Positions 1 through 56,380 are shown, counted from the first letter of the stretch. The stretch: 64,000 bases of DNA from Alphaproteobacteria bacterium (GCA_024244705.1 JAAEOK010000033.1:20534-84533); one strand, 5' to 3'. Numbers and translations are program-made. Notes: generated by a model not told the origin, from the letters alone.

Positions 1-588
1 ATTCGCGACCTCTGCCGGCCCGGGCTCGAGCCGGCGTCGCTCGCCGTCGAGGCCGGCGAGGCGGTCGCCATCGTCGGCCGCTCGGGGGCCGGCAAATCCT
101 TGCTGCTCCGCGCCATCGCCGATCTCGACCCCAACCGGGGCCGCGTCTCGCTCGACGGGCAAAGGCGCGAGACCTGGAGCGGCCCGGAATGGCGGCGGCG
201 TGTCGCCTACCTCGCCGCCGAGGCCGGCTGGTGGGCGGACGACGTCGGCCGCCATTTCGCCGACCGCGAGGTGGCGGCGCCGTGGCTGGCCGCCCTCGGC
301 CTGCCGGCGGAGGCCATGGGCTGGCAGGTGACACGGCTCTCGACCGGCGAGAAGCAGCGCCTGGCGCTGGCCCGGCTGCTCGCCGGCGGGCCGGCCGTCC
401 TGCTCCTCGACGAACCGACCTCGGCGCTCGATCCCGACAGCGTCGCCGCCGCCGAGGCCGTCCTCCGCGACCGGCTCGCCGACGGCATCGCCATCGTCTT
501 CACCACCCACGACCGCGCCCAGGCCGGCCGGCTCGCCGGGCGCACGCTGACCATGGACGCGGGGCGGCTCTACGAGGCCGAGCCATGA
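1..588 (+). CDS. fetA: ABC transporter ATP-binding protein, FetA/YbbL-like (5' end lies outside window)
   Basis: Frame 1 is open from base 1. My translation gives Walker A GRSGAGKS at nt 76-99. The 100..588 ORF then shows the ABC signature LSTGEKQR and Walker B LLLDEP. The stop overlaps the permease start (ATGA at 585-588). Confidence 0.85.
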   Translation: MRDLCRPGLEPASLAVEAGEAVAIVGRSGAGKSLLLRAIADLDPNRGRVSLDGQRRETWSGPEWRRRVAYLAAEAGWWADDVGRHFADREVAAPWLAALGLPAEAMGWQVTRLSTGEKQRLALARLLAGGPAVLLLDEPTSALDPDSVAAAEAVLRDRLADGIAIVFTTHDRAQAGRLAGRTLTMDAGRLYEAEP

Positions 589-1394
589 GCTATATCGAAC
601 TCGGCACGATCGATGTCGCCCTCGCCGCCCTGCTGCTGATCGTCAATGCCGGCCTGTCGATCTGGCTCCGGCTCGGCCTCGCCTGGCAGATCGCCATCGC
701 CGGCGCCCGGATGGTGGTGCAGTTGGTACTGCTCGGGCTGGTGCTCAATTTCCTCTTCACCCAGGTGTCGCCGGCCTGGACCCTGCTCGCCGCCGCGATC
801 ATGGTCGGCTTCGCCGGTTACGAGGTCACCGCGCGCCAGCGACGGTCGCTGTCCGGCCTGTGGACCTACGGTATCGGCACGACGACGATGCTGGCCGCCG
901 CCGGCCTGATCACGGTTCTTGCCCTGACCACCATGGTCCGGCCCGAGCCGTGGTACGATCCGCGTTACGCCCTGCCGCTGCTCGGCATGATCTTGGGCAA
1001 TGCGATGACCGGCATCGCGCTCGGCCTCAACGCGCTGTTCACCATGGCGGCGCGCGAGCAGGCGGCGATCGAGGCCCGGCTGTGTCTCGGCGCCGACCGC
1101 TGGACCGCGCTCCACCACGTCACCCGCGAGGCGCTGCGCAGCGGCATGATCCCGATCCTCAATTCGATGGCGGCGACCGGCGTCGTCGCCATCCCCGGCA
1201 TGATGACGGGACAGGTGCTGGCCGGGGTGGCGCCGCTCGACGCGGTCAAGTATCAGTTGCTGATCATGTTTCTGATCGCCGGGGTCGTCGGCATCGGCAC
1301 CACCGGCGCGGTCTATCTCGGCGCCTGGCGGCTCACCGACGAGCGCCACCGCCTGCGTCTCGACCGCCTGCGCGCGGCGGATTCCGCTGGATAA
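585..1394 (+). CDS. fetB: Iron export ABC permease FetB/YbbM (UPF0014 family)
   Basis: 269-aa multi-pass membrane protein. Blocks LPLLGMILGNAMTGIALGL and AIPGMMTGQVLAGVAPLDAVKYQLLIMF match what I recall of E. coli FetB. It is translationally coupled to fetA. Confidence 0.85.
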   Translation: MSYIELGTIDVALAALLLIVNAGLSIWLRLGLAWQIAIAGARMVVQLVLLGLVLNFLFTQVSPAWTLLAAAIMVGFAGYEVTARQRRSLSGLWTYGIGTTTMLAAAGLITVLALTTMVRPEPWYDPRYALPLLGMILGNAMTGIALGLNALFTMAAREQAAIEARLCLGADRWTALHHVTREALRSGMIPILNSMAATGVVAIPGMMTGQVLAGVAPLDAVKYQLLIMFLIAGVVGIGTTGAVYLGAWRLTDERHRLRLDRLRAADSAG

Positions 1395-9120: not shown

Positions 9121-9389
9121 CTCATTGGGCCGCGGTGCCCGATTTTGTCGTTCGCGATTGGGGATCGCAATGGTTATGGGTGGAATTCTCAGGGCGCCAA
9201 ATGATCACCCGGTTGCGAGAAAATCTGACCGAAGCCGTGGATCGAATCCCCGATCCCGGCGCGCCGGAGGCAGCTCCAGAACTGCGCCTGGTTGCTGGTG
9301 ATAACGGGCTTGCCGGTGAGCCGCTCGACCTCTTCGGCGACTTCCAGCGACCGGATACCACCGCAGCTGAGGAATATGGCTTCGGCGCC
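9121..9389. repeat. Left copy of an imperfect direct repeat (3' end plus downstream flank of the racemase-family gene)
   Basis: Aligns by eye with 19038-19293. Both copies begin with ctcattgg and share gcaatggttatggg, attctcagggcgccaaa and ccccgatcccggcgcgccggaggcagctccagaactgcgcctggtt. I count about 26 mismatches over about 225 aligned nt, plus a ~13-nt indel in the non-coding part. Confidence 0.85.
9189..9389 (-). pseudogene. Truncated 3' fragment (last ~65 codons) of an Asp/Glu racemase / maleate isomerase-family gene
   Basis: The C-terminal part of ORF 9189..9572 reads AIFLSCGGIRSLEVAEEVERLTGKPVITSNQAQFWSCLRRAGIGDSIHGFGQIFSQPGDHLAP. This is near-identical to the C-terminus of the intact 262-aa gene at 19093..19881. 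The upstream part of the ORF has no similarity to that gene. Confidence 0.85.
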
Positions 9390-9445
9390 TGCCGGATCTC
9401 CAGGACTTTCGGCGATCCGTACCGGGTGTTGACAACCGCTTTCAT
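9389..9445 (-). pseudogene. N-terminal remnant (~19 codons) of an MDR-superfamily (quinone oxidoreductase / Zn-ADH-like) gene
   Basis: ATG at 9445 is preceded by AGGAGGAGGAAGAG and encodes MKAVVNTRYGSPKVLEIRQ, the stereotyped N-terminus of MDR oxidoreductases. Similarity ends at the junction with the racemase fragment. Confidence 0.5.
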
Positions 9446-10079
9446 AGACTCTTCCTCCTCCTTCACCCTCGCCTCGCGAAGCTCCGCCGCAAAATTCCCA
9501 ATGTTGCTGAGACTCATCCCGAAGTAGTTGAGATTCGGCCCGTCGAATTGAAAAAATCGATAGCGCTATCAACGTTAGAAGAATGGCAATTTTTCGCCGA
9601 TTTCTGCCAAAGCATCATCTGGTGTGAAGGATTGAGTTGGGCCAAGAGACGCCAGCGGCATCCCGATTCCCTATGTCTGGTTTTGGCACGCAGCTGCCGA
9701 ATTGACTATTGCAATTGGACGACCGTTTTGTGGTCCGAAAGCCGACATTCTAATCGTCGGTCTTGAATGTTCGAATTGGGCCACGATAGATCTTTGGCCA
9801 TGAAGGTTTGGTTGCCCGTTCTTGGGATTATGGTTAGCGATTAGCACCACAACTGACGCCCATAGGATTTCGAATATGCGACCACGAATCAAGGATCCGT
9901 CGGCCACCGAACGTCGTGATGATTAGTGGACAGGCCAATTTCGGACGCTATGCGGACACAAAAGAATATCGCAACAACGTGACGGCCTAAGTCATTTGAG
10001 CGGCCCGAGACATAATCGACATTTCGTACCGGAGACATGGGTAACACATTTGGCCTGTTCTATCGGGCGGGAGGTGTTG

Positions 10080-10157
10080 ATGCCGTGGAAAGAGAGTTCG
10101 GTGATGGAAAAACGCCTTCGCTTTGTTGCCCGCCTGCTGGACGGCGAACCGATGACG
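10080..10157 (+). mobile_element. IS481-family-like transposase N-terminal remnant (26 codons)
   Basis: GGGAGG then ATG 10080 encodes MPWKESSVMEKRLRFVARLLDGEPMT. This matches the stereotyped MPWKE..M..R..F. N-terminus of IS481-type transposases as I recall it. The expected HTH and DDE regions are absent after about nt 10160. Confidence 0.45.
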
Positions 10158-10361
10158 GGGACCCCCTGCTACGCGACCAACGACCTGACGTGCTATGCTC
10201 GTCCTAGTCGATCGGGAGGGGTATTATGCGACGGACAGTTTTCGCGTTCGCGCCCCGACTGTTGCCCGCCGTCCTGCTGCTCGACAGCGCGAAACCGTTG
10301 GTCCTGTCCTCTTCTATGATATTTCCGGTCATTCGACCGGCGGGCGGCTAGGAGTCAAGGG

Positions 10362-11351
10362 ATGAAAACACTGAACGCCATGCGGCTCTGGCGGCCATTC
10401 TCGAAATGGCCACTTAAAGTACTTTTCATGGTGTTTTATTTACCCGCCGCATTTCTGCCCGGAACACTGCGCGCCGGCGACGCACCGCAGTTTCCACCAG
10501 CCAGCCGAATCGGGCTTGTGCCGCCGACGGGGTTTGTGGTCAGCCCCGACTTCACGGGCTTCATGGATCGCGAGGCGGTCGCCTCGATCGTCATCACCGA
10601 GATGCCGAAGGAGGCTTATGGTGATCTCGAAGCCGGGTTCACGGAAGACAACCTCGCGGCTCAGGGCATGGCGCTACAGGGGCCTTGTCCCGACCTGGCC
10701 ATTACCTTCGAGCACCGCTGCTTCCGCGCCAGTCAGGAGGCGAGCGGCTACCTCTTCCAGAAATGGTTCTTGATCGCTAGGCTCGGCACCGAGACCGCCT
10801 TGGTCTTGGTGACCATGCCCGACCTTGTCTTGCAGGCTGGCGTCTATAGCGAGGCCGTGGTCGAGGCTGCCCTCTCGTCGATCGCCTATAGCGAGGACCT
10901 GACCACCGACCCTCTCGAAGTCTTGCCCTTCGCCATCGCGGAGGGAGATCTCTTACCCTTCAAGGACACCATGGGTGGAAGTGCAGCGCTCTTTGTCGGT
11001 GAGGCCACCGCCGAGGGGCCGCAGCCCGCGTGGATCGTCGCCGCTTCGCTCGGTCCCGGCACCAATGCCGCAAATATCGAATTCGGGCGGCTCGCCTTTC
11101 AAGAAATCGCCACCGTATTGGACGCCAGGGTGACCGAAGAACGGCGGATCACTGTCGGCCCGCTAGCGGGACACGTGCTCGAGGGAACGGGCACGGACGA
11201 GGTGACCGGAGACGACCTCTTCGTCTTCCAGGCCATTCTTGTCGACGCCGAAGACACCTATTACCGCCTCGTCGGCCTCGCTCCGATGACGCAAAAGGAG
11301 CTCTATCGGCCCGAGTTCTTTCGACTGACACAGACGCTCGAACCGCGCTAA
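10362..11351 (+). CDS. Secreted hypothetical protein (island gene A)
   Basis: AGGAG lies 7 nt upstream of ATG 10362. N-terminal hydrophobic signal-like segment KVLFMVFYLPAAFLPGTLRA. No recognisable catalytic motif. Confidence 0.6.
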   Translation: MKTLNAMRLWRPFSKWPLKVLFMVFYLPAAFLPGTLRAGDAPQFPPASRIGLVPPTGFVVSPDFTGFMDREAVASIVITEMPKEAYGDLEAGFTEDNLAAQGMALQGPCPDLAITFEHRCFRASQEASGYLFQKWFLIARLGTETALVLVTMPDLVLQAGVYSEAVVEAALSSIAYSEDLTTDPLEVLPFAIAEGDLLPFKDTMGGSAALFVGEATAEGPQPAWIVAASLGPGTNAANIEFGRLAFQEIATVLDARVTEERRITVGPLAGHVLEGTGTDEVTGDDLFVFQAILVDAEDTYYRLVGLAPMTQKELYRPEFFRLTQTLEPR

Positions 11352-11544
11352 TCCAGTACGTCACCGGATGTGCCGGCGCCAGCGCCATACGGCAAGCGCG
11401 GAACTGCACGGCCGCCATTGACTTGCCCCATAGCTGGTTACTTGGTGTACGATAAGCATCCGGACCCAGATGAGGCGATAGGATTGCTTGGCAATTCGCC
11501 GGTCCGAGCACCTCGGCTCAAAGACAACCAGCGGGGGAAATGCC

Positions 11545-12960
11545 ATGTCAATCTTGAAGTCGATCAAGACCGCGGCACTCGCCGCGGCTTTTGTGCTCGC
11601 TCTGGCCCAATCGGCAGTCGCTGCCAGCAACATCCTGTTCATTCTAGACGGTTCGAATTCGATGTGGGGCCAGCTCGAAGGCACCGCCAAGATCGCAACC
11701 GCGAAGAACGTCCTCGCCAACCTCATGACCGGCCTGCCGCCCGACACAAATGTCGGCCTGATGGCCTACGGCCATCGTGCAAAGTCGGATTGCGCCGATG
11801 TGGAGTTGCTGTCAGGAATCGGCGCCGATACGGGAATTGCGCTCCTCCGCAAGATCAAAGACATCTCGCCGAAGGGAAAGACACCTATTGCGGCCTCGCT
11901 GGCGCAAAGTGAACACGCCTTCGACGGCAGACTGGTGGAGAACAACAACATCATCCTGATATCCGACGGCATCGAGACCTGCGATGGCGACCCCTGCAAG
12001 GTTGCGGGCGAGCTACGGACCAAGGGCATCAACGTGCGGGTCCATGTCGTCGGCTTCAATGTCGAAGGCGAGGCCCGCCGGCAGCTCGAATGTATCGCGA
12101 ACGCGGGCAACGGCCAGTATTTCAACGCCGAGTCGACGATCGGATTCCAGGAAGCGATCCAGCAAGTGCAACAAGTCGCCCAGGCCGAACCCGAGCCGGC
12201 ACCGGCGCCCGCGCCGGCTGGGCCGACAATAACCGAAGTGTTCCGAGACGACTTCGACGGCGATGTGCTCGGCGAACATTGGGATGTCCTCAATCCGGAC
12301 ATCGAAAGCTACATCGTCGAGGATGGCTTTCTCAACGTCCTGTCCTCCACAGAACTAACGCTGTACAGCCACGATGACGCACTCGCGAATGTGTTCCAAC
12401 TGACCGAACCTCTCCCGGACGGAGACTGGATAGCGACCATGCGGGTGCTGCCTTCGATCACAACTTTCCGGGAAAGCTTCTCTCTTGCGCTTTATACGGA
12501 CAAGGACAACTTTCTCGCTGCTACCGCGGGGAGCGGCGTCAACGCGCACGCTGGAAATGTCTACGTCCATCTTTCCGCCAACAAGGTCACGAGGGGCAAA
12601 TACACAAGTTTTGGCAGCTACATGTTCTACAGCGAGGAGGCACTGGGACACCGCAACGTCTCTCAAAATATTGCGGCTTATTCCGAATTGGCGACCCGCG
12701 ACATCCAAGCAATAGTGTTACGTGTCGAGAAGGTCGGTCGGAGCTATTTCGTTTCCGGGAAAGTAGAAGGCGACCCAACGACGGCCGATAGTGAGGAAGG
12801 GCAATGGGTCGAACTGGAAAAACTCACGGCCCTGAGACCGCCGGGAAAGTTCCTGATAATTTCTATCGGTCAACAAATTTCAGATGGTGCCGATAAGCAC
12901 TTGATGGGAGGCGAGACGTTTGTGCAGGTCGATTGGGTGAAGATCGAAACGACGGAATAG
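11545..12960 (+). CDS. Secreted VWA (MIDAS) domain protein with C-terminal concanavalin-A/LamG-like lectin domain (island gene B)
   Basis: Internal ATG 11545 is preceded by GGGGGA. Signal peptide MSILKSIKTAALAAAFVLALAQSAVA. VWA core ILFILDGSNSMWG (DxSxS MIDAS) ... IILISDGIETCDG. A PEPAPAPAPAGP linker follows. The C-terminal domain starts FRDDFDGDVLGEHWDVLNP, which is typical of DUF1349/LamG-like folds. Confidence 0.8.
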   Translation: MSILKSIKTAALAAAFVLALAQSAVAASNILFILDGSNSMWGQLEGTAKIATAKNVLANLMTGLPPDTNVGLMAYGHRAKSDCADVELLSGIGADTGIALLRKIKDISPKGKTPIAASLAQSEHAFDGRLVENNNIILISDGIETCDGDPCKVAGELRTKGINVRVHVVGFNVEGEARRQLECIANAGNGQYFNAESTIGFQEAIQQVQQVAQAEPEPAPAPAPAGPTITEVFRDDFDGDVLGEHWDVLNPDIESYIVEDGFLNVLSSTELTLYSHDDALANVFQLTEPLPDGDWIATMRVLPSITTFRESFSLALYTDKDNFLAATAGSGVNAHAGNVYVHLSANKVTRGKYTSFGSYMFYSEEALGHRNVSQNIAAYSELATRDIQAIVLRVEKVGRSYFVSGKVEGDPTTADSEEGQWVELEKLTALRPPGKFLIISIGQQISDGADKHLMGGETFVQVDWVKIETTE

Positions 12961-12981
12961 GCCCCCACCGGCCGCAGGTGT

Positions 12982-14655
12982 TCACTCAATGTCCTGGATG
13001 GCACGGGCCAGCAGGCGACGCGACATCTTGGGCGACAACGCCTCGCTCTTCGTCACTTCCGCCTCGCCCGCGAGCGCCGGTGTTTTCGTTGCCTCGAGGC
13101 GCTTGACGATCTCGCCGTCCGGCTGCACGTAATGGTGCCGCCATAGGGTCGTTTCGGAAGAGGATTTAAGCAGACTTTCGAGATCCAGCAGCCGCGCCAA
13201 TTCGACCTCCTCAGGGGTTGGCGGCACGGCCGCCTGTTGAGGCGACGCCGCCGACGCTTCGACGGACGCACCTTCTTTTTCCGCCACCTCCGTTTCCCCG
13301 CCAACCTGTCTCTTTTTTTCGATTTCCGTCTCCGGGTCAGGGTCGGTGGCGGTCACGCGCGGTTCGGGCTCGTCCGGCAGGCCGAGGGTCGCACTCATCG
13401 CCGCCGCAATGTCGGCGGCTTCGGCCGTCGCGTTGAAGCTGCCGGCGCCGAGGCCGGCAAGAAAGGTCAATTCGAAAATCGAGCCGTCGTCCAGGGCGGC
13501 CCCGTAGACACCGAAGATCGCGAAGTCGGGTTCCGTATCGGCAATCGCCGACTCGACGGTCTGCGCGTTCAGTTCCATGGCCCTCACCGGATTGCTACCG
13601 ATCCACCGGCCGGAAAGCGCGAAACGGTATACGCCCGGATCCGGCGCCCCAATAAAAATGGTGCCATGGGTGACGTGATATTGGGCTGAGCGGCCACTGT
13701 CTTCCGGTACTTCGACCGAGCGAACCACGGTCTCCAGGCCGCGAACCAGATTGCCTTGGCCATCGTAGACCGGCGTCGGGAGTCCGGACAGCGACAGCAG
13801 AATGGCACCGGGACGATCCGTCTTGTAGGAAAACCAATCGACGTCGGCGGCGGGGTAAAGGCTGATCGCGACCGTCCGTCCGTCGCTGAGGTCACAGGCC
13901 GTCGCGGCCTCGTGGTTGGGCTCGCATTGATCCCAATTGGGAGCGTAGTCGAACCGCAGCTCGACCGGCGCCGGCTGCGGAACATCGCCGTGAAGGGTGA
14001 GCGCGACATCGCCTTCGTCGAGCAGACGGGTCTCGCCGAATTGCCACGCCGCACCGTCCTCGTCTGCCGGTATCAACCGATATCGTAACGCCGGATCGAC
14101 GAATGCGGGTATCCGCAGGGTCGGTGTCACATAGCCGGGCGCCGTCAGACGGAGGACAAAGTGGTCCGCGTCGTCGGCGGGGAACAACGTCACCGGACCG
14201 CCACCGCTCGACCGTTCCGGACCCAGTTCGAAGACGAAAGCGGTCTCGCGCGAATCGTTGGGCTCGAAGGCGTCGATGTCGGGCGACCAGAAGGCGAGCG
14301 CGCCACCGCCATGGCCGTCCCATTGGTCGAAGCCCTGGTCCGCGTCGTAGCGTGCGTCGCGCCGCAGCCGCACGACATAAGGCCCCGCCGTGGAAATACG
14401 CGCGCCGCCGCGGCCAATGACCATGCCGTCCGCATCCAGAACTTCGACGGCCACTTTCTTCAGCGTCTCGGGATCGGTCTCGAAAGCAAGCAGGCCCGGC
14501 GCCGGCAGTCGCATCGGATAGTCGAGATGTCCACCCGGCTTCGACAGATGGAAGGAGACCTTCTCATCAACCTCGTAGTGTCTGTCATCGGCCGCTGCCG
14601 GAAGCTGCCATGCCAGCATCGATGCGATAAGCGGCAGGATCGCGCGCCTGACCAT
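12982..14655 (-). CDS. Secreted protein with two pre-peptidase C-terminal (PPC)-like domains and an acidic C-terminal tail (island gene C)
   Basis: Signal peptide MVRRAILPLIASMLAWQLPAAA. Two copies of the PPC-type pattern: FEPNDSRETAF...LFPADDADHFVL and CEPNHEAATACDL...LYPAADVDWFSYK. The start is 3 nt after the stop of gene D. Confidence 0.65.
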   Translation of the reverse strand: MVRRAILPLIASMLAWQLPAAADDRHYEVDEKVSFHLSKPGGHLDYPMRLPAPGLLAFETDPETLKKVAVEVLDADGMVIGRGGARISTAGPYVVRLRRDARYDADQGFDQWDGHGGGALAFWSPDIDAFEPNDSRETAFVFELGPERSSGGGPVTLFPADDADHFVLRLTAPGYVTPTLRIPAFVDPALRYRLIPADEDGAAWQFGETRLLDEGDVALTLHGDVPQPAPVELRFDYAPNWDQCEPNHEAATACDLSDGRTVAISLYPAADVDWFSYKTDRPGAILLSLSGLPTPVYDGQGNLVRGLETVVRSVEVPEDSGRSAQYHVTHGTIFIGAPDPGVYRFALSGRWIGSNPVRAMELNAQTVESAIADTEPDFAIFGVYGAALDDGSIFELTFLAGLGAGSFNATAEAADIAAAMSATLGLPDEPEPRVTATDPDPETEIEKKRQVGGETEVAEKEGASVEASAASPQQAAVPPTPEEVELARLLDLESLLKSSSETTLWRHHYVQPDGEIVKRLEATKTPALAGEAEVTKSEALSPKMSRRLLARAIQDIE

Positions 14656-14658
14656 GGC

Positions 14659-17600
14659 TTATTGCGCGCTTCCCAGAGCGACGGCATCGAGACCCATGAG
14701 CCGTTGGACCGCATCGTGTACGCGGTCCTTGGTTATCGTCCGTTCGCGCAATTCGCCGGCTTCGCCTCTCAGGCCGGGCACCTTGGGCCCGCGAGCTTCC
14801 TGTTTGTTCTGGTCCCGCGAACGCGACCAGTTTATCGACCACACGGTTCGGCCGCGGGACTTGACATAGGAGACGGGGTGACGGCGGACCGTTAATGTTG
14901 CCTGGTCATTGGCGTCGTCCTCGTGGTCGCTTTCCCGGTATTCGATCGCCTCGACCCAGTAGTTCGGAACGGATGAGCCACCACCGGTGCCGACCCGATA
15001 TGCCGTCCAGCGCAACTCTTTCGGCTTGTCTTCCTTGTCCGGCTGTCGTTTCGGCTCGTCGGGCTCGATCTCGGCGACCGCACCGGTGGCGCTGCTGCCA
15101 CACGTTGTCTCACCGTCCGAGAAGACCAACAGCTTCCGCTTCGGAAATTGTGCCACGGTTTGCAGGTAGTTGTTGGCAAATCGAATGGCATCGCCGAGTG
15201 GCGTATCGCCCGATGGTTCAATGCCATGAAGGACATTGACTATTTCTTCGTGGTCGTTGGTGAATGGCACCACCGTCTGAATCCGGTTGCAATCAAAGAA
15301 AACAATCAGTGCGGCTTCATCGGTCACGCGCAGTTTCCTTACGGCTTCGGCGATACCGTCTTTCGCCTCAACCATGCGCCCGGCGTCCTCCATCGAGCCC
15401 GAGGCGTCCAGCAGCAGAACAATCGAGCGTCCGGCGGCGTCGAGCTTGTGCCATTCATCGGTGCCGCCACCGTCGGTCTTGCCGCCGTAGCGGACGTTTT
15501 CCTCCAGCCCGTACCACCTCTTGTCGTCCCAGTCATACCATGCGGCGGACCGTGGATCGGCGTCGATGCGAGGCCCATCCTTGACCCGCGCATCGACAAG
15601 AAAGGCGAGTTCCTTGTCCTCCGCGAGTATTTTCGCCACCGCGTCGGAGGGTGGAATGGTAACGGTGTAGTCATAGGATCCTTGCTCGACACGTGTCGGT
15701 AGCTCTGCCCGGTAACCCTCGGGATATCCCGGCTGCTTACCGCTGGCCAATCGCACCGTGACGTCGACAACAGGCTCTGCGAAACTGAGGTACACCTTCG
15801 CGGCCGCATCCGGATCGTAGCCTTCGTTGACCGTGACAACGAGCTTTCGGGCGCCATCGCGGTCGGGGTCGGGACGCCACGTCGCCCGGTAAATGGCCTC
15901 GCCGTTCTGCAGGACCGCGAGCTTCACGAGATGGGCGGTCGGATCGAGCTTATGGATCGGCAATTTCCGTCCACTGAGCCTGTCGTTTCCTCCAATCGAA
16001 GCGCCGCCTTCCCACATCGTCACGCGCAGGGTGCCGCCATCCTCCACCGATAATCGAGGCGCGGTCTCCGGCTTTTCGTCGAAGCGGCCGATCCAGGAAT
16101 CGAAGCCGGACACCGCGACCTCCAATTCGACCACCTCTTCGCCGCCCGCCAAGCGTTTCGCCGCCTCCTCGAAGAAGTAGACGTCGTCGTCAAATCGCTC
16201 GAACTCGTTGTCGACGAATTCCTCGAACTCGTAGTCGACAAATCCTTCGAACTCGTTATAGAAAATCTTGCCGTCGCTCCGATACGTTTTCGATCTCAAT
16301 GTCGCTTTGAGATTAATTTCCTCGCCGCCGACATCGAGCGCCGCCAATTGGTCTACCGGCCGGCTGGTCTTGACGCGAAAGCGCACCTTCTTGTTTTCCT
16401 CTTTGTCGAATCTGATGCCTTCGGTCAGAATCGTCCGAGTGCGCCAGGTGCCCGGCCGCGACGATGGCTCGCGAACGACCTTCCAAACCGGGCGCCAATC
16501 CGGGGGGAAGCCGATGGCCTCGTCGACGTCGACGATGAACGACGTCACGACCGGCGGCGTCAGGATCGCCGCCGCCAACTCGAACGAATTCGCGGCAAGG
16601 GCTTTGATCGCCTCATTGGGGCCGATCTCGTCGTCGCGCTCGACCGGATTCGTGTTGACCGCGACCAGGAACAATCGCGTGCGGGGGAAATCCTCGATCT
16701 CGACACTCGCCCACTTCTCGCGGAAACGCTGACCCGGGAAATCGTGGACTTTCCACTGCTCGATCGGGCCGTCGTCGTCGTAGCCGCGGCGCGGTACTTC
16801 GACCAGACGGAAATCCCAGTAAGGGTGAGACGCACCGCGCACCGCCACCGACAGCCGGCTGAGGTTTTGCTCCTCCTTGATGTCGTAAAATCCGGCCAGC
16901 GCCGAACGCGCCGGTTCGATCTCATAGTAGCCGATCTGAAAGGGCATCAGATCGCGTTTCAGCGGCACCAAGCGGGTGCCTTCCAGTTTGTCGAGTGCAG
17001 TACGTATCAGTTCGAGCTCGTTACTAGCGGCAATATCGGGATGCATTCCGTCGATATAGGCTTGCTTGACGTCATCGCGTTTTCGGAACGAGAACGTCGG
17101 GTTGAGGGACGGGCTTTGGATCAGTGTCGCGACGGCGAAGTCGCCGATTCGCGCCCTCATTTTTTCGCCCCAGGCGTATTCGTCGCCGAGGGCGATGGCC
17201 AGGGCTTGATAGGTATTGTGGCCGTCGACTTCGGCCGCCTCTTCCCATATGCGTCGGACGATGTCGTTCGATCCGGGATTTCTTTCAGAAAGATATTGGA
17301 AAAAGACCGAAGCCGCGTATTCGTTGGCGTCCTCGCTGCTCAGGGTCGACATCGACAGGCGATTGGCATCCCACGCCCCATACCGCTCCGCCCACCCGGT
17401 CGATAGCCAGTATTCCGGCGGCGGATCGAACGCCTTGTCCTCGACCCAGGTCGCCGTCGATTCCATCAGCCAGAACCGTTCCGCGACGTCGTAACCGAAC
17501 TGCACGACATGGAAGAATTCATGGGCCACCAGCGCCTTCAGATAATGCTCCTTCCACGCCTCGTCGGCGCTGTTTCCCCAGACATGCCGCTCCAAGCCGA

Positions 17601-18027
17601 TCTCGATCCACGGATTGTAAAGCACGCGCTCGCCGACAAGCTCGCCCAGAAAGCCCATATTCTGGTAGGCGACGCCGGTGGGTTTGAACCCCATCCGTTC
17701 GCTAACGGGAATGTCGGTGATATAGACGTCGACCTTATGCCCTTCGAGCCATGACGGTTCCGCGAAGCCGAGCTCGTCGAAGATCTTTGTCCGCGCTTCC
17801 TCGATATAATCGCCGACCGCTTTCGCATAGGCTTCGCTGGTCTGCCCTTCCTGGATCCCAGCCCGGAATGCGGACGGTCGCGACGCCTGATAGAGCACCC
17901 GAAAATGGTCCGTGTGATAGGTTTTCGCGGTCAGCCAGTCGCTCCAGCCCACTTTGGCGTCGGCGACGCCACCAAGGAAGAGCAGGACGACACCGGCCAT
18001 CGCCAATATGCGGAGCGCCGCTCTCAC
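14659..18027 (-). CDS. Secreted 1122-aa fusion: N-terminal HExxH gluzincin-like metalloprotease, large unknown middle, C-terminal VWA (MIDAS) domain (island gene D)
   Basis: Signal peptide MRAALRILAMAGVVLLFLGGVADA. Zinc motif LVAHEFFHVVQ followed by FWLMESTATWVED (a W-x-x-E-x-x-A-x-W third-ligand-type block). C-terminal VWA IVLLLDASGSMED ... LLVFSDGETTCG. The GTG start overlaps the stop of gene E (GTGA at 18024-18027). Confidence 0.8.
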   Translation of the reverse strand: MRAALRILAMAGVVLLFLGGVADAKVGWSDWLTAKTYHTDHFRVLYQASRPSAFRAGIQEGQTSEAYAKAVGDYIEEARTKIFDELGFAEPSWLEGHKVDVYITDIPVSERMGFKPTGVAYQNMGFLGELVGERVLYNPWIEIGLERHVWGNSADEAWKEHYLKALVAHEFFHVVQFGYDVAERFWLMESTATWVEDKAFDPPPEYWLSTGWAERYGAWDANRLSMSTLSSEDANEYAASVFFQYLSERNPGSNDIVRRIWEEAAEVDGHNTYQALAIALGDEYAWGEKMRARIGDFAVATLIQSPSLNPTFSFRKRDDVKQAYIDGMHPDIAASNELELIRTALDKLEGTRLVPLKRDLMPFQIGYYEIEPARSALAGFYDIKEEQNLSRLSVAVRGASHPYWDFRLVEVPRRGYDDDGPIEQWKVHDFPGQRFREKWASVEIEDFPRTRLFLVAVNTNPVERDDEIGPNEAIKALAANSFELAAAILTPPVVTSFIVDVDEAIGFPPDWRPVWKVVREPSSRPGTWRTRTILTEGIRFDKEENKKVRFRVKTSRPVDQLAALDVGGEEINLKATLRSKTYRSDGKIFYNEFEGFVDYEFEEFVDNEFERFDDDVYFFEEAAKRLAGGEEVVELEVAVSGFDSWIGRFDEKPETAPRLSVEDGGTLRVTMWEGGASIGGNDRLSGRKLPIHKLDPTAHLVKLAVLQNGEAIYRATWRPDPDRDGARKLVVTVNEGYDPDAAAKVYLSFAEPVVDVTVRLASGKQPGYPEGYRAELPTRVEQGSYDYTVTIPPSDAVAKILAEDKELAFLVDARVKDGPRIDADPRSAAWYDWDDKRWYGLEENVRYGGKTDGGGTDEWHKLDAAGRSIVLLLDASGSMEDAGRMVEAKDGIAEAVRKLRVTDEAALIVFFDCNRIQTVVPFTNDHEEIVNVLHGIEPSGDTPLGDAIRFANNYLQTVAQFPKRKLLVFSDGETTCGSSATGAVAEIEPDEPKRQPDKEDKPKELRWTAYRVGTGGGSSVPNYWVEAIEYRESDHEDDANDQATLTVRRHPVSYVKSRGRTVWSINWSRSRDQNKQEARGPKVPGLRGEAGELRERTITKDRVHDAVQRLMGLDAVALGSAQ
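16198..16262. repeat. 24-bp tandem repeat, about 2.7 copies, inside gene D
   Basis: ctcgaactcgttgtcgacgaattc / ctcgaactcgtagtcgacaaatcc / ttcgaactcgttataga. On the coding strand this encodes NEFEGFVD-YEFEEFVD-NEFERFDD. Confidence 0.7.
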
Positions 18028-18896
18028 TTCGCGATCCGTATGGCGAGGCGGCCATGAAACCGGATCGTGACCTCGGTCGAGAACGTCGCCTCGCCGAGAT
18101 CGATCTCGACCGGCTTTAGTTCGTTCGACGAATCGCCGACCTTGACCGGCTCGAACCGGGCGAGGCGCAGCGGCAGTTGCCAGTCCGCGCTCATTAGAAC
18201 GGTCTCGTCGCCCGCAGCCAGTTCCGCGACCCCGTCATCGCTGTCGATTTCGAGCACCGGCGAGTCGCGCTCGCTGTCGTCGAGTTTCCACATCGCTTCC
18301 GGCCATTGGATCAGCTCGAAGAGCGGCGGCTCGCTGCCGACCGGCGTCATCAACACCAGGTCGGGCCGGTCGGCGATGGGAAAGGGTGGCAGGCCAGGCT
18401 GCAGCCAGATCACGGTCGCGTCGCCGCGCCGCATCTCGCCAAGATAGCGCCGGCGTTCGACCACGACCACGGCGACATCGGCCAGTTCCCTGACATTGTC
18501 AGCCAGCCGCAGCGGAAAATCGGCATCGCGCCGGGATAGGGCGGAGACCACCAGCGGATCCAGCACCAATGTGTCCTCGGTGATCTCGGCCAAAGGGTAA
18601 GTCATGTTTTCGCTGTAGGGCGCCCCGCGAAGGGAAATCGTGTCGCCGGCATCGACCAATAGTTCGATGACGACGGCACTGGGGTCAGCTGTCGGATTCG
18701 CGTGAGTATCAGCGCCGTCCTGTGCTTCCGCGCGTGCTGAAACAACCACCAAGGCCACAGCAGTCAAGAACGTCACAAGCGGGCAGTGCCGTTTGGGTCG
18801 ACCTCGTTTTTGGACGATTTCAGTACCTTCGATCAAGGCGATGTCCAACGACTCTTTGCCCCCGTCAATTTCAGTCGGAGCAAGGAAACGCCGCAA
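18024..18896 (-). CDS. Secreted or membrane-anchored hypothetical protein (island gene E, first gene of the E-D-C operon)
   Basis: Hydrophobic segment CPLVTFLTAVALVVVSARAEA follows the basic KRGRPKRH stretch. The start is uncertain. The ORF-track start at 18896 is a TTG that overlaps a perfect TATAAT (18896-18901, minus strand), so the real start may be a downstream TTG near 18848. Confidence 0.55.
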   Translation of the reverse strand: MRRFLAPTEIDGGKESLDIALIEGTEIVQKRGRPKRHCPLVTFLTAVALVVVSARAEAQDGADTHANPTADPSAVVIELLVDAGDTISLRGAPYSENMTYPLAEITEDTLVLDPLVVSALSRRDADFPLRLADNVRELADVAVVVVERRRYLGEMRRGDATVIWLQPGLPPFPIADRPDLVLMTPVGSEPPLFELIQWPEAMWKLDDSERDSPVLEIDSDDGVAELAAGDETVLMSADWQLPLRLARFEPVKVGDSSNELKPVEIDLGEATFSTEVTIRFHGRLAIRIAK

Positions 18897-19037: not shown

Positions 19038-19293
19038 CTCATTGGCCTGCGGCGCCCGCGGTGGTCGTCCGCAATGGTTATGGGCGAAATTCTCAGGGCG
19101 CCAAACGAGTGCCCGGTCGCGAGAAAATCTGGCCGAAACCCTCGATCGAATCCCCGATCCCGGCGCGCCGGAGGCAGCTCCAGAACTGCGCCTGGTTACT
19201 GGTGATGACGGGCTTGCCGGTGAGTTGTTCGATCTCCTCGGCGACTTCCAGAGAGCGGATACCGCCGCAGCTCAAGAATATGGCGTCGGCGTC
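19038..19293. repeat. Right copy of the imperfect direct repeat (3' end of the intact racemase-family gene plus flank)
   Basis: See the left copy at 9121-9389. Same orientation, roughly 85-90% identity by eye. Confidence 0.85.
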
Positions 19294-19881
19294 GGGGCGA
19301 TCGATTTCGAGTGCGAACGCCTTCCAGTAGTCCGGCGTAACGCAGCCGAATTCGATGCCGGTCGTGAGGTTGAGGCCCTGCATATCGAGTACCTCGAAGC
19401 CCTTGCCGACCAGAAATTCCGCCTCGGCGGTGTTGATCTCATCGAGGTAGGGCGTCCCGACGACCAGTTTTTGCACGCCCAATTCCCGCAGCGCATCGAC
19501 CACCCCCGTAACCAGGCACATCGGCCTCGCCCACGGCGCGCCCTTTTCGATTTCCGCCATCACTCGTTCTTCGCCGATCACGATGGAACCGCTGGTACAG
19601 CTGTAGCTGACAACGTCCGGCTTGGTGTCCGGCTGAATGCGCGACGCCGCGTCGGCCATGGTGTCGATATGGCGGGCGAGCGTTTCATTGGTCGTGTAAT
19701 CCTCCGACTTGAGCCGCGTGATGTGCACCGCGACGCCCTCGGGCGCCATGGCGAAGAAATCCGACTCGGCCGCCAGGTCGGTCGACATCAGGATGAAGCC
19801 GAGCCTTGCCCGCCAGTGTTTGCCGGCATCGAGTTGCGGCTGCCGTGCCTTCGATTGGATCGTCTCTCCTGATTTGAACAT
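19093..19881 (-). CDS. Asp/Glu/hydantoin racemase family protein (maleate isomerase / arylmalonate decarboxylase-like)
   Basis: Two Cys-containing catalytic-type blocks, VVSYSCTSGS and AIFLSCGGIRS. 262 aa. Last gene of a four-gene minus-strand operon. Confidence 0.8.
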   Translation of the reverse strand: MFKSGETIQSKARQPQLDAGKHWRARLGFILMSTDLAAESDFFAMAPEGVAVHITRLKSEDYTTNETLARHIDTMADAASRIQPDTKPDVVSYSCTSGSIVIGEERVMAEIEKGAPWARPMCLVTGVVDALRELGVQKLVVGTPYLDEINTAEAEFLVGKGFEVLDMQGLNLTTGIEFGCVTPDYWKAFALEIDRPDADAIFLSCGGIRSLEVAEEIEQLTGKPVITSNQAQFWSCLRRAGIGDSIEGFGQIFSRPGTRLAP

Positions 19882-19891
19882 CGATCGCCCC

Positions 19892-21040
19892 TCAGAGGAT
19901 TACGTCGTCGAGTGCCTTCGCGTGATCCGTGATCTGCTCATACCCATCCTCGGTGATGATGAAGCTGTCACCGACTTGCGCGCGGAAACTCTTGGTCTCG
20001 CTGACCGAGCCGTCGACCGCCAACACCATGCCGGGGCGAAGAACTGTTTTGTCTCCGAGAACGAGTTCGGGCTTTTCCAAATAGCTGTATCCGGTGGCAC
20101 GCCCACAGCGGAATGGGTAATCGAAACCCGCTTCCTCGATGACGGCGGCATAGGCCCGATGCACCTCTTCGGCGGTGACGCCGGGGCGAAGGACGCTCAG
20201 CGCCGCCGCCTGGCTGTCGACCGCCACCCGATAGATTTCGGCCTGTTTGCTGTCCTGCACTTCGCCGATCCAGAACGTGCGGTCGAAACCCAGCTTGAAG
20301 CGGTGAAAATTCGTCATCCCGCAAAAGCACAGGAAGACCGGATCGCCGCGCTTCATGATGCGCGTCGAGGCTCGGTGATGGGGCTTCGTGATTTCGTCGC
20401 CCGACGCCATGATCTGCAGGAAATGCGTGTTCGGCGACATGCACCGATCGGAATAGTGGGTCGCCAGCAACTCGGCCGCCTTGCGCGTGCCCGCGGACGA
20501 CGTCGCCAGAGCCACCTCGTATTCCGGCACGCCGGGTCCGATCGCCGCGCGTCCCGCCTCCATCATCGCCATGGCGACCGCGCCGGCGTGGCGCGCGATC
20601 TGCAATTCTTCGTCCGACTTGATCATGCGCATTTCGGAAATGACCGGGGCGACGTCTCCCAGCTTGCCATCCTCGACGAGTGTGTTGAGGTAGCTGCGCA
20701 CGATCGGCGGCATCCGGTCGGGCTCGATCCCGACCCGCACATTGCCGCTCAGTATGGACGGCAATTCCTCGCGCCATTCGTTGCCAAGTCCGTCGTTCCA
20801 GGCCGCGATTCGGTCGACCCGCGCCGCCGCCTCGGCCATGTCCAATTCCATGCTCGGCGTGATCAGGAGGGCCTCGCCATCCTTGGGCACGACCAGAATC
20901 GTCGGCCGCCCAAAGTCCATGTGCAGGTAATCGTAATAACCGGTGAAGTAGTAAACGCTGTCGTCGTCGGTTATCAGCGCGAGGTCGAAACCGGTTTCGG
21001 CCAACTTGGCGCGCAAGCTCCCCATCCGCTGCGTAAACAT
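19892..21040 (-). CDS. M24 family metallopeptidase (Xaa-Pro dipeptidase / creatinase / ectoine-hydrolase-like)
   Basis: Internal ATG at 21040 (MFTQRMGSLRAKLAETGFD...) overlaps the upstream stop (TAATG). It has a creatinase-type N-domain then a pita-bread domain (SDEELQIARHAGAVAMAMMEA ...). The 83 codons upstream in the ORF track are Arg-rich and overlap the M20 gene, so I excluded them. Confidence 0.8.
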   Translation of the reverse strand: MFTQRMGSLRAKLAETGFDLALITDDDSVYYFTGYYDYLHMDFGRPTILVVPKDGEALLITPSMELDMAEAAARVDRIAAWNDGLGNEWREELPSILSGNVRVGIEPDRMPPIVRSYLNTLVEDGKLGDVAPVISEMRMIKSDEELQIARHAGAVAMAMMEAGRAAIGPGVPEYEVALATSSAGTRKAAELLATHYSDRCMSPNTHFLQIMASGDEITKPHHRASTRIMKRGDPVFLCFCGMTNFHRFKLGFDRTFWIGEVQDSKQAEIYRVAVDSQAAALSVLRPGVTAEEVHRAYAAVIEEAGFDYPFRCGRATGYSYLEKPELVLGDKTVLRPGMVLAVDGSVSETKSFRAQVGDSFIITEDGYEQITDHAKALDDVIL

Positions 21041-22215
21041 TAGGCGCCCGGACCCGCGAGTTGTTGCTCGACAAGCCTGACCCAGAACGACGAACCCACG
21101 GTCAGCGCGTCGTCGCAAAAATCGTAATCGTCGGAATGAAGCGGCCGCGCGTGGGCGCCTCGCGTTCCGTTCCCCAACAGGACGAAGCACCCCGGACGCG
21201 CGGCGGCCATATGCGCGAAGTCCTCGGAAAAGAGCTTTGCATCGCAATCCCCGTCGACGCGCTCGGCGCCAACCAGTTTGGCCGCGCATTCGGCGGCGGC
21301 GCGAGCCGCCCGCGGCGCGTTGATCGTCGATGGAAAAACGGTGTCGTAGGTGACCATCGCGGAGACCCCGTGAGCCCGGCAGATGCCGTCGACGATTCGA
21401 CGCATGTGGGCCTCGATGTCGGCATTGATCTCCGGCCGCAGCGCGCGGGCATCTCCGCGCAATGTGGCCTTACCGGGAAGCACGTTCCGTTTACCGTCGG
21501 TGATGAATTCCGTGACCGATACGACGCCGTTCACGCTGGGGTTGAGTTTTCGCGAAACGATCGTCTGCAGCGCCCCGACAATTTCGGTTCCGACGGTGAT
21601 GGCGTCGACACCCATATGGGGCAGCGCCGCGTGACCTCCGCGCGCCGTGACCTCGATTTCGAAGAGACTTTCGCTGGCCGTAATCGGGCCGGCGCGGGTC
21701 GCGATTGTTCCGAGCTCCATGCCGGGGATATTGTGGATTCCATAAACCTCATCGACGGGAAAGCGCTCGAAGAGACCGTTCTCGATCATCGCCGGGGCGC
21801 CCATACCGTGCTCTTCGTTGGGCTGGAAGATGAACACGACCCGGCCGTTGAAGGCGCCGCTCGCGGCAAGATGTTTGGCCGCGCCCAGCAGCATCGTGGT
21901 GTGGCCGTCGTGGCCGCAGGCATGCATCACGCTGTCGGTCCCCGATCGATGCGCCGGCTCTTTCGCCTCGTGAATCGGCAGCGCGTCCATATCGGCACGA
22001 AGCCCGACACTCCGCGTATCGTTCCCGCGTTGCAGGATTCCCACCACACCGGTGCGACCGATACCGCGGTAGACGTCGAGCCCGAATTCTTCCAGCAGGT
22101 CGGCAACCCGCGCCGACGTGCGATGTTCCTCGAAACCCAGTTCCGGGTGGCGGTGAAAATCGCGGCGCCACTCGACCATGACATCTTTCAGCGATTGTGT
22201 GGGTAGATCGGTCAC
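21040..22215 (-). CDS. M20 family amidohydrolase (hippurate hydrolase / N-acyl-amino-acid amidohydrolase-like)
   Basis: WRRDFHRHPELGFEEHRTS and MHACGHDGH motifs. Start is taken as GTG 22215 (VTDLPTQSLKDVMVEW), with ATG 22179 as the alternative. The ORF-track N-terminal extension is rejected. Confidence 0.8.
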   Translation of the reverse strand: MTDLPTQSLKDVMVEWRRDFHRHPELGFEEHRTSARVADLLEEFGLDVYRGIGRTGVVGILQRGNDTRSVGLRADMDALPIHEAKEPAHRSGTDSVMHACGHDGHTTMLLGAAKHLAASGAFNGRVVFIFQPNEEHGMGAPAMIENGLFERFPVDEVYGIHNIPGMELGTIATRAGPITASESLFEIEVTARGGHAALPHMGVDAITVGTEIVGALQTIVSRKLNPSVNGVVSVTEFITDGKRNVLPGKATLRGDARALRPEINADIEAHMRRIVDGICRAHGVSAMVTYDTVFPSTINAPRAARAAAECAAKLVGAERVDGDCDAKLFSEDFAHMAAARPGCFVLLGNGTRGAHARPLHSDDYDFCDDALTVGSSFWVRLVEQQLAGPGA

Positions 22216-22383
22216 GCTTAACGGTCTCTCGATTGACAAAACAAAGGGCGGCCAGCGACCCCTTATCAGATCGGCGAGGTGAGCGCTATTGTCGTCGCGC
22301 CGGCACGCCGCGCGTTCAATTCTGCCGCGGCGAGTTCGGTCCGCGCACCGCTGCCGAGCCCGCCATGGGACTCGGCCGGACAC

Positions 22384-23826
22384 TCAGGCCGGTGGCGGAT
22401 AGATGCCGACGAGCTTGGTCTTGAGGTAGGGGTCGAGAGCCTCGGTTCCGCCTTCGACCCCGTAGCCGCTGTCCTTCCAGCCGCCGAGCGGCGATTCCGG
22501 GAAATGCGGCGGGACGTCATTGACGCCGACGAGACCGGACTGGAAACCGTCGATGAAGCGCCGATGCTCTTCCGCGCGCGCGGTGAAAAGGTAGGACGCC
22601 AACCCGTATTCGAGCCCGTTGGCCGCTTCGAGCGCCGCCTCCGGGTCGCTGAACGGCGCGATCGGGGCCACCGGGCCAAAGGGCTCGACCGTCATCATGT
22701 CGCTGTCGGCGGGAACCCCGGTGAGAACCGTTGGCTCGAAGAAATAGCCGCGGTTGCCGGCCCGGCTGCCGCCGGTCACCACGTTCGCGCCCTTGTCGAC
22801 CGCCTCGTCGACCATACGCTCGATCGCCGCCAGGCGCCGGTCATTGGCCAGCGGGCCCATCTCCGTCGCCGGGTCCTTGCCGGCGCCGATCTTGAGGCCG
22901 CTGGCGGCGGCGGCGAAGCGGTCGACGAATTCCTCGTAGACCTTGTCGTGGACCATGAAGCGCGTCGGCGAGACACAGACCTGGCCGGAATTGAAGAACT
23001 TGCGCTGGGCCAACAACCGGGCGGCCGCGTCGACATCGACATCGTCGAAGACGACCACCGCCGAATGCCCGCCGAGTTCCATGGTGACCGGTTTCATATG
23101 CTCGCCGGCGCGCGCCGCGAGCAGCTTGCCGACCGGAATCGAGCCGGTGAAAGTGACCTTGCGGATGGCCGGCGCCGCGATCAGCGGTCGCGATATCTCA
23201 TCCGGAACGCCGAAGACGACGTTGACCGCGTCGCCGGGCAATCCGGCATCGAGCAAGGCCTTGACCAGCTCGATGGCCGAACCGGGCGTTTCCTCGGCCG
23301 GCTTGAGGACACAGGAACAGCCGGCGCCGAGCAGGGCGCCGAGCTTCTTGGCGACCAGCACCATGGGGAAGTTCCACGGCGTCAAGGCGGCGACGACACC
23401 GATCGGGACCTTGTCGACGATCATGCGGGAAACGCCATCGCGGCCGCGGGAGGTCCGCCCCGACACCCGCCGGCCCTCCTCGCCGCCCCACTCGATGAAA
23501 TCGGCGGCGCGGTCGATTTCGGCCGCCGCCTGAGCTAGCGGCTTGCCCTGCTCCCGGGTCATCACCAGGGCCATATCGTCGCGCCGCGCGCGGATGATCT
23601 GCGCCGCCTTGTGCAGGATGGCGCCGCGATCCCAGGCCGAAACCCGCGACCATTCGCGCAAGCCCTTCTCGGCGGACGCGATGGCGCGCTGCAAATCGGC
23701 CTCGCCGGCGTGGCACAGGGCACCGATCGGTTCCTCGGTCGCCGGATCGAGAACCGGCCCGGTCACGCCGTCGCTGCCCGCGACCCAGTCACCGGCAATG
23801 AAGAGTGGGAAAATGTGATCGCTCAT
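22384..23826 (-). CDS. NAD(P)-dependent aldehyde dehydrogenase (succinate-semialdehyde dehydrogenase-like)
   Basis: ALDH motifs TMELGGHSA, FFNSGQVCVSPTR (catalytic Cys) and EPFGPV. 480 aa. Confidence 0.9.
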   Translation of the reverse strand: MSDHIFPLFIAGDWVAGSDGVTGPVLDPATEEPIGALCHAGEADLQRAIASAEKGLREWSRVSAWDRGAILHKAAQIIRARRDDMALVMTREQGKPLAQAAAEIDRAADFIEWGGEEGRRVSGRTSRGRDGVSRMIVDKVPIGVVAALTPWNFPMVLVAKKLGALLGAGCSCVLKPAEETPGSAIELVKALLDAGLPGDAVNVVFGVPDEISRPLIAAPAIRKVTFTGSIPVGKLLAARAGEHMKPVTMELGGHSAVVVFDDVDVDAAARLLAQRKFFNSGQVCVSPTRFMVHDKVYEEFVDRFAAAASGLKIGAGKDPATEMGPLANDRRLAAIERMVDEAVDKGANVVTGGSRAGNRGYFFEPTVLTGVPADSDMMTVEPFGPVAPIAPFSDPEAALEAANGLEYGLASYLFTARAEEHRRFIDGFQSGLVGVNDVPPHFPESPLGGWKDSGYGVEGGTEALDPYLKTKLVGIYPPPA

Positions 23827-56300: not shown

Positions 56301-56380
56301 AGCCGCCGCTGGTCTTCTCGCGCGCCAACGCCAACCTGTTAGTCGACACGCTCGATCGGGCCTTGGCTTTGGAAATTTGA
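53342..56380 (+). CDS. Tri-domain fusion: APH/homoserine-kinase-II-like kinase, M23 (LytM) peptidase-like domain, class III PLP aminotransferase-fold domain
   Basis: N-terminal APH-type catalytic loop [13 protein letters not shown] and IDFGD. The middle domain has HLGIDL (H440) and PHLHFQI (H532/H534). The C-terminal domain has [38 protein letters not shown] (PLP Lys) and a class III aminotransferase layout. No signal peptide. Confidence 0.85.

Follow-up and report, generated by a model that had tools for sequence, protein, structure and literature searches.

Five genes and a conserved operon

This analysis concerns a stretch of 64,000 nucleotides (nt) from an Alphaproteobacteria bacterium (GCA_024244705.1, JAAEOK010000033.1:20534-84533), referred to here as the window, in which all positions are counted from the first letter of the whole stretch. 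Five genes, named A to E, lie between positions 10362 and 18896, and three of them, E, D and C, form a conserved operon that appears to encode an exported zinc protease and two partner proteins. The five genes are the following, with protein lengths in amino acids (aa).

10362-11351, plus strand: gene A, 329 aa, exported-looking; outside the conserved operon
11545-12960, plus strand: gene B, 471 aa from the ATG at 11545; the reading frame opens at TTG 11488
12982-14655, minus strand: gene C, 557 aa, an exported-looking candidate accessory protein
14659-18027, minus strand: gene D, 1122 aa, multidomain and exported-looking
18024-18896, minus strand: gene E, a reading frame of 290 codons, translationally coupled to D

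All five open reading frames (ORFs) are real and lie at the positions given in a previous reading of this DNA (the original prediction), which also described the junctions correctly. E ends in GCG AAG TGA, and its TGA overlaps the GTG start of D by 4 nt (GTGA; junction AAGTGAGAG), while the TAA stop of D is separated from the ATG of C by the 3-nt gap 'gcc'. A and B face the E-D-C operon in convergent orientation, and 21 nt lie between the stops of B and C. In all five products the N-terminus shows a basic n-region followed by a hydrophobic core and an AXA-type site; none has a transmembrane segment further on. The homologues of the five products likewise begin with signal-peptide-like N-termini. 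These calls, which agree with the signal-peptide-like segment previously proposed for every product, were made not with SignalP but with a crude heuristic of our own that considers the charge of the n-region, a Kyte-Doolittle (KD) hydrophobic core and the -3/-1 rule. As predicted, no ATPase, regulator or dedicated secretion gene was found within 10362-18896. None of the products A to E had a match in PADLOC-DB 2.0 at E<=0.01, a scan for promoters and terminators remained at or below shuffle expectation, and no tRNA, tmRNA or Rfam elements were found in the window.

The conservation of the locus was assessed on the contigs of nine D relatives that share 27-64% identity with D (L001, L002, L004, L005/6, L007, L008/9, L010, L015 and L017). 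In all nine, an E-like gene of 210-290 aa is found immediately upstream of D, and at every locus with gene calls it overlaps the start of D by 4 nt. The similarity of these E-like genes to E was detected by tblastn, with E-values of 1e-4 to 1e-99, and for L015 by a profile (2.6e-37). Downstream of D, a C-like gene with the EPND motif is present where the contig continues (L001, L002, L005, L008 and L015), so that all three genes occur in the same order in five other loci. The D family is rare: three close homologues were found among 5.8e9 clusters and 22 proteins at E<=1e-30 among 1.84e9 (1.84 billion) representatives, a scan of genome contigs returned a single distant match (L003), and a scan of metagenomes added L017 only. 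E-D-C is a rare, conserved, translationally coupled operon, and it is this triad, not the set of five genes, that probably constitutes the functional unit. A joint occurrence of all five families, which had been proposed as a check, was found for the E-D-C part, whereas A is independent and B is linked to the operon in one other locus only.

Predicted domains of D, C and E

The domains and motifs recognized in D and C, both encoded on the minus strand, are listed below; several of those in D derive from an AlphaFold2 (AF2) model.

D, aa ~35-325, minus strand: zinc-peptidase domain (HExxH), directly after the signal peptide
D, 17509-17523 (aa 169-173), minus strand: HEFFH zinc-binding/catalytic motif, with the putative third ligand Glu189 in WLMESTA
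D, aa ~337-845, minus strand: beta-sandwich array, all-beta in the AF2 model
D, aa ~865-990 (VWA domain coordinates 15058-15435), minus strand: VWA domain with a metal ion-dependent adhesion site (MIDAS), D874-x-S876-x-S878, T942 and D971
D, aa ~1003-1117, minus strand: beta/helical C-terminal domain of the AF2 model
C, aa ~128-200 and ~240-330, minus strand: two PPC-like modules, EPN(D/H)...D.D(H/W)F, from motif and profile

The reading of D as an HExxH protein with a VWA-MIDAS domain was borne out by the HEFFH motif at aa 169-173, Glu189 and a VWA_2 match of 58.7 bits. The family NF045524 (MXAN_6640 family putative metalloprotease, HExxH) matched aa 45-308 of D with 97.9 bits (E=8.3e-28), and this alignment to the N-terminal ~270 aa spans 249 of the 290 model positions. 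D carries both elements, the HExxH motif and a downstream Glu, by which gluzincins of the MA(E) type are recognized in sequence. Motifs were counted over 14 D relatives, 12 of which include the HExxH region: HExxH is kept in 12 of these 12 and the downstream Glu (WLxE) in 11, and no other 30-aa segment of the family is as well conserved as the HExxH...E block. The WLMESTA segment of D is close to WLNEGFA, which we take to be the third-ligand motif of M1 gluzincins. Weak Pfam matches among the D relatives were to DUF5700 (6 of 14), DUF6055 (1.6e-5), Peptidase_M1 and BSP, all of them annotated as peptidase-like and presumably all members of the MA clan of Pfam.

The VWA_2 match covers aa 869-973 (cut-off 27 bits), and the MIDAS is complete (DASGS, T942 and D971), as it is in the close D relatives and in P0008. 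Not every member of the family has the VWA domain, which is missing from P0007, P0010 and P0012. Another relative, P0004, bears a sorting domain of the type IX secretion system (T9SS), which marks it as an extracellular protein. The AF2 model of D, built from a 14-sequence alignment, had a predicted local distance difference test (pLDDT) score of 74 and a predicted template modelling score (pTM) of 0.60; in it, aa 35-325 adopt a mixed N-lobe and a helical C-lobe at a pLDDT of ~80-90. Searches of the N-terminus, middle and C-terminus of D against Pfam at E<=10 returned nothing, a sequence search of the Protein Data Bank (PDB) with D gave no match, and the catalytic domain did not match Peptidase_M9.

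It could be argued that D functions above all as an adhesin or a protein of the matrix, in which HExxH serves for binding or self-processing only and the operon builds a surface or biofilm structure. Two MIDAS VWA domains are encoded in the region, the beta-sandwich array gives D a long stalk, PPC-type modules for binding are present in C, and other large exported proteins possess the beta/VWA/C-terminal cassette of D without HExxH. However, it is the VWA domain that is dispensable among the relatives, as seen in the three proteins named above, whereas HExxH is present wherever its region is covered and the HExxH...E block is the best conserved part of the protein. This pattern argues that catalysis is the function for which D is probably selected, and the adhesin alternative appears improbable.

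Two further features of D were noted. The block at aa 643-692 (15949-16098, minus strand), FDE..TAP...WEG...GG.D.LSGRKLP, is invariant or nearly so in relatives that are only ~27% identical overall; it ranks third in conservation, after the active site and the entry to the VWA domain, and is located in a loop-rich part of the beta array. Could it form an interface with E or C, or bind a metal? In addition, a 24-nt tandem repeat at aa ~589-615 (16182-16262, minus strand) encodes an acidic insertion of the FEEFVD/NEFE type, which is missing from the two closest D homologues and has a pLDDT below 50. It looks like a recent repeat expansion.

Two PPC-like domains had been proposed for C, and they are supported by profile searches only. 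A profile of 6 C sequences matched the collagen-binding domains of ColG (5iku, 1.5e-5) and ColH (3jqw, 1.4e-4), and E-P-N, A and D.DW are invariant in the corresponding alignment (EPN...A...D.DW). In contrast, Pfam, including PPC (PF04151), gave no match for the C of the window even at E<=10; PF04151 reached only E=0.05 in 2 of 6 C homologues, and a PDB search with the C sequence alone was likewise negative. After the PPC-like modules come a short conserved block (GVYG...LAGLG), a low-complexity acidic linker and a helical C-terminal region that is likewise conserved. The C-like proteins of L005 (6193-7227) and L015 (9271-10299) are shorter (~340 aa) and have neither the acidic linker nor the helical C-terminus of the window protein. 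Both end in a transmembrane helix and a basic tail, and because of this helix the complexes of L005 and L015 would be placed at the outer face of the cytoplasmic membrane.

E had been described as a protein of 290 aa, which corresponds to a start at TTG 18896. This TTG overlaps a TATAAT-like hexamer at 18901-18896 and is not the true start; E probably starts at TTG 18848 or 18836, giving ~270 aa. No match for E was found in Pfam, NCBIfam or the PDB, even with profiles, and its homologues had no Pfam match either. Modelling was carried out from GTC at 18815, which is not a start codon, so that only the signal region was trimmed. The AF2 model, based on 10 sequences, had a pLDDT of 80 and a pTM of 0.74; it is mostly beta and ends in a very long C-terminal beta-hairpin (strands 204-221 and 235-261). 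In Foldseek searches with this model the best E-values were 0.1 against the PDB (TM-score <0.2) and 0.014 against BFVD, neither of them significant, and because of these values E is predicted to have a fold without a detectable known relative.

A role of E as an outer-membrane export or pore component for D, of a two-partner-like or secretin-like kind, was also considered; the operon would then contain its own secretion gene. E is always translationally coupled upstream of D, the hairpin at the end of its model is unusually long, and the top Foldseek matches, although not significant, were the secretin barrels GspD, PulD and InvG. However, these matches are at noise level (E>=0.1, TM-score <0.2) and were rejected as evidence. 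The mature E protein has only ~230 aa, the Pfam searches were negative for E and its homologues alike, and the signal sequence of the L010 homologue ends, in our reading, in the lipobox-like ILSSC, which suggests a lipoprotein rather than an integral barrel. We therefore regard a pore function of E as very unlikely.

A and B as passengers of a 9.9-kb insertion

The genes A to E are contained in an insertion of ~9.9 kb, the edges and remnants of which are given below.

9153-9398, no strand assigned: left copy of a direct repeat, 246 nt, a truncated pseudo-copy of the 3' end of an Amdase-like gene; left edge of the insertion
10081-10170, plus strand: N-terminal stub of an IS481-family transposase (MPWKESSVMEKRLRFVARLLDGEPMTG...), followed by a disruption of the frame; just upstream of A
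19057-19302, no strand assigned: right copy of the direct repeat, 246 nt, covering the 3' terminus of the intact Amdase-like gene and the sequence just beyond it
19093-19881, minus strand: intact Amdase-like gene, overlapping the right repeat copy

The two repeat copies are 86% identical and 9904 nt apart. The left repeat translates to ...GFGQIFSQPGDHLAP, and the intact Amdase-like gene ends in ...GFGQIFSRPGTRLAP, each followed by a stop. A 246-nt repeat of this kind would be expected where an element has inserted at the 3' terminus of a gene and supplied a new end for it; no integrase is present with the insertion. A tblastn search of plasmids with the transposase stub returned 23 records, mostly from Rhizobium and also from Bradyrhizobium, with 81-88% identity over 26 aa, and the IS481 label derives from the annotation of the matched features (IS481 family transposase, or integrase core domain). 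The GC content is 0.60-0.62 inside the insertion as compared to 0.65-0.68 in the flanks, and the insertion consists of A to E and about 1 kb of non-coding sequence. Because the segment is bounded by repeats, contains the IS481 stub and has a lower GC content, A to E arrived, or were assembled, as the cargo of a horizontally acquired insertion. Being common cargo of an insertion does not mean having a common function.

The flanks of the insertion encode ordinary metabolic enzymes, and hrcA, dnaK, coaBC and ubiB are found elsewhere in the window, from which it follows that the window is chromosomal DNA. Just outside the insertion, an M24 (creatinase/prolidase-type) peptidase, an M20 peptidase and an aldehyde dehydrogenase are encoded on the minus strand (19892-21289, 21040-22383 and 22384-23826, respectively). 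Since the operon is part of an insertion, this peptide-catabolism context is probably coincidental. At a distance, a 1012-aa ORF (53342-56380, plus strand) joins phosphotransferase (APH), Peptidase_M23 and class-III aminotransferase domains in one frame.

The VWA domains, the horizontal acquisition and the rare and patchy distribution of the operon might also recall the vWA-based conflict systems and suggest a related, exported system of conflict or defence. However, the PADLOC search was negative for each of the five products, no NTPase or effector domain is present, all components are exported, and the operon of L005 is located among the housekeeping genes ribH, nusB, ftsY and gidA, all of which make a defence function extremely unlikely.

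No Pfam, NCBIfam or PDB match was obtained for A, even with a 16-sequence profile. Its 23 homologues include proteins of Pelagibius sp. and of a metagenome-assembled genome of Stellaceae. In the two contexts inspected, a 256-kb Pelagibius contig (L011) and a 34-kb metagenome contig (L012), none of B to E was found near the A homologue, which in the latter case is flanked by transposases. A is an independent gene.

The two domains of B are the following.

B, aa 29-202, plus strand: VWA-MIDAS domain, VWA 50.6 bits
B, aa ~235-468, plus strand: ConA-like domain, assigned from matches of family members and preceded by a Pro/Ala-rich linker

The VWA-MIDAS part of the original description of B is upheld by the match of 50.6 bits (cut-off 23.8) and by the MIDAS, which consists of DGSNS, the Thr in KGKTP and the Asp in SDG. 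Its ConA/LamG-like part is supported by profile searches only: the C-terminal domain of ~235 aa had no Pfam match in B itself, also at E<=10, and none in a PDB profile search, whereas among 20 family members GH43_C2 (ConA-like) was matched in 7 (best E=1.5e-4), DUF1349 in 2 and legume lectin in 1. Starting from ATG 11545, B has 471 aa and a typical signal peptide at its N-terminus, and this form is covered to 99-100% by homologues of 440-470 aa. The gene call in the database is of 432 aa, presumably from Met40, and drops 11545-11661; this start is probably mis-annotated, because the shorter form would lose the signal peptide and the DxSxS of the MIDAS.

The B family is large, with >883 matches of the same two-domain length that the sources name only 'VWA domain-containing protein', and more than 100 proteins of 440-470 aa align with B along its entire length at 40-60% identity. 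A homologue that is 54% identical to B is found on a 689-kb contig (L013) with none of A, C, D or E nearby. There, the B homologue is followed by three co-directional genes (9480-13501) of 435, 311 and 612 aa without Pfam domains, which have hydrophobic N-terminal segments and of which two are rich in charged, coiled-coil-like sequence; they may represent a different partner set for the B family. In L001, a ConA-like-only gene and a full B-family gene, the latter cut by the contig end, are found directly downstream of C, as is B in the window. An initial view of these two genes as a 'split' B was rejected, as the VWA gene is a full B-family gene at the contig end and the other is an additional ConA-like paralogue. 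In all other loci with flanks, B-family genes are missing beside the operon.

These data bear on the proposal that all five genes are one module whose products form a single extracytoplasmic assembly. The genes share one repeat-bounded insertion, all products are exported-looking, and the B-family gene and ConA-like-only paralogue of L001 occupy the position of B. However, the A homologues on two contigs and the B homologue on the 689-kb contig lie without the rest, the B family has >883 matches as compared to ~22 for D, and the distant operons with enough flanking sequence (L005 and L008) are not adjoined by A or B, which in the window are convergent to the operon. Furthermore, the L001 genes are not those closest to B of the window but rank ~100 of 120, which could point to recruitment on several occasions instead of inherited synteny; with two loci, this is suggestive at most. 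B or B-family proteins may be facultative associates of the operon, and an assembly of all five products is quite improbable.

A proposed protease complex and its relation to known systems

The reading that we prefer is that E-D-C encodes an envelope-associated or secreted zinc protease, D, with the partners C and E, and that A and B are independent exported genes that ride on the same ~9.9-kb insertion. We assign it a probability of roughly 0.55. We have high confidence in its genomic and architectural components, which were observed directly: the order and coupling of the genes, the conserved triad, the motifs, the export signals (by heuristic) and the structure of the insertion. Its mechanistic components are tentative, somewhat short of even odds; we infer from sequence that D is catalytic, that a complex forms, what C and E do and what kind of substrate is cleaved. 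D would be an exported zinc endopeptidase of the gluzincin type that is active in the envelope or is secreted. C may tether or target the protease, or supply substrate binding, via its PPC modules, and in some lineages it is anchored in the cytoplasmic membrane by its C-terminal helix. The VWA domain of D could add the metal-dependent capture of an acidic ligand. Thermolysin-like enzymes usually carry an N-terminal propeptide, which D does not have. E is an obligate partner that is made stoichiometrically from the same mRNA just ahead of D, the catalytic domain of which is without a propeptide; E could act in trans to help D fold or to keep it latent, or it might be a structural subunit. With its PPC and VWA modules the complex would bind its target, either a protein or a polymer, and then cleave it.

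A more elaborate version can be formulated, in which E-D-C is an undescribed envelope protease machine: E would be stoichiometric and either keep D latent or folded or oligomerise via its hairpin for export or anchoring, C would position the enzyme, and the VWA domain would capture acidic ligands, possibly the acidic linker of C. We consider this version unlikely as it stands.

A number of observations weigh against the protease reading. The score of D for NF045524, 97.9 bits, is below the curated cut-off of 140 bits, so that D is related to this family but is not a curated member, and no curated family connects A to E with proteolysis. When the complete D model was compared with the PDB in Foldseek, no protease was returned, only beta-sandwich and capsid noise with low TM-scores, and the VWA region of the model (aa 857-970) is of low confidence (pLDDT 45-59). 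The PPC assignment of C hangs on profile matches of E~1e-5 over a short motif-bearing stretch, the signal-peptide calls have a home-made heuristic as their sole basis, and the role proposed for E is pure inference.

What this work adds is the E-D-C triad, which is rare yet conserved and includes a partner whose predicted fold matches none that is known. If our reading is right, the triad is a rare, phylogenetically scattered three-component exported zinc protease, which would give the uncharacterised putative peptidases of the MXAN_6640, DUF6055 and DUF5700 group their first context and would add E, a confident predicted fold without a relative in the PDB. It would also be a case in which protease accessory modules (PPC) are encoded as a separate, sometimes membrane-anchored subunit. 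The operon bears on no long-standing open question, and its value is that of a well-delimited structural and biochemical target. In annotations, the operon should be kept separate from A and B.

Much of the original prediction is retained in this reading, namely an exported D with gluzincin and VWA parts, a separate PPC-type C and a tightly coupled E; its view of a single five-gene system is not. Its statement that the locus fits no known system holds in the sense that no curated family and no paper was found for the triad, whereas the individual parts are those of ordinary secreted proteases. A literature search for MXAN_6640, DUF5700 or a VWA/gluzincin operon found no papers. The closest family relationship is that to NF045524/MXAN_6640, which concerns the N-terminal ~270 aa of D, with HExxH and the downstream Glu. 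D is ~800 aa longer, owing to its beta-sandwich array, VWA domain and C-terminal domain, and it has the partners E and C. Relatives of D match both DUF5700 and DUF6055 (the latter at 1.6e-5), and DUF6055 has been linked to the MEROPS family M106, which is considered 'not properly described', while DUF6055 itself is uncharacterised (PMC11241649).

The exclusion of Bat/MoxR, Tad and cytoplasmic vWA conflict systems in the original prediction was corroborated, as nothing of these was detected by Pfam, NCBIfam or PADLOC. The Bat/MoxR-VWA operons also contain bacterial MIDAS VWA proteins, and B weakly matches BatA (E=0.0077). However, these operons encode a MoxR AAA+ ATPase, a DUF58 protein and a TPR protein, none of which is present in the five genes or in the flanks tested here, and BatA and BatB are anchored by transmembrane segments, whereas the VWA proteins of the window have cleavable-looking signal peptides. 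B is a typical member of a family of exported proteins that combine VWA and ConA-like domains, most of which cannot be linked to E-D-C, as is evident from the family sizes given above and from the B homologue of L013, which has no such operon.

The nearest functional analogy for E-D-C appears to be that of the clostridial collagenases ColG and ColH, which consist of an M9 peptidase, PKD domains and PPC-type collagen-binding domains (CBDs). Like D together with C, they are exported gluzincins with PPC modules that carry the EPND motif. In the collagenases the PPC modules are fused to the enzyme, whereas here the PPC-like modules are found on the separate polypeptide C. ColG and ColH have no E-like partner, and D differs from them in its additional VWA domain and in a catalytic domain that does not belong to Peptidase_M9 by profile match.

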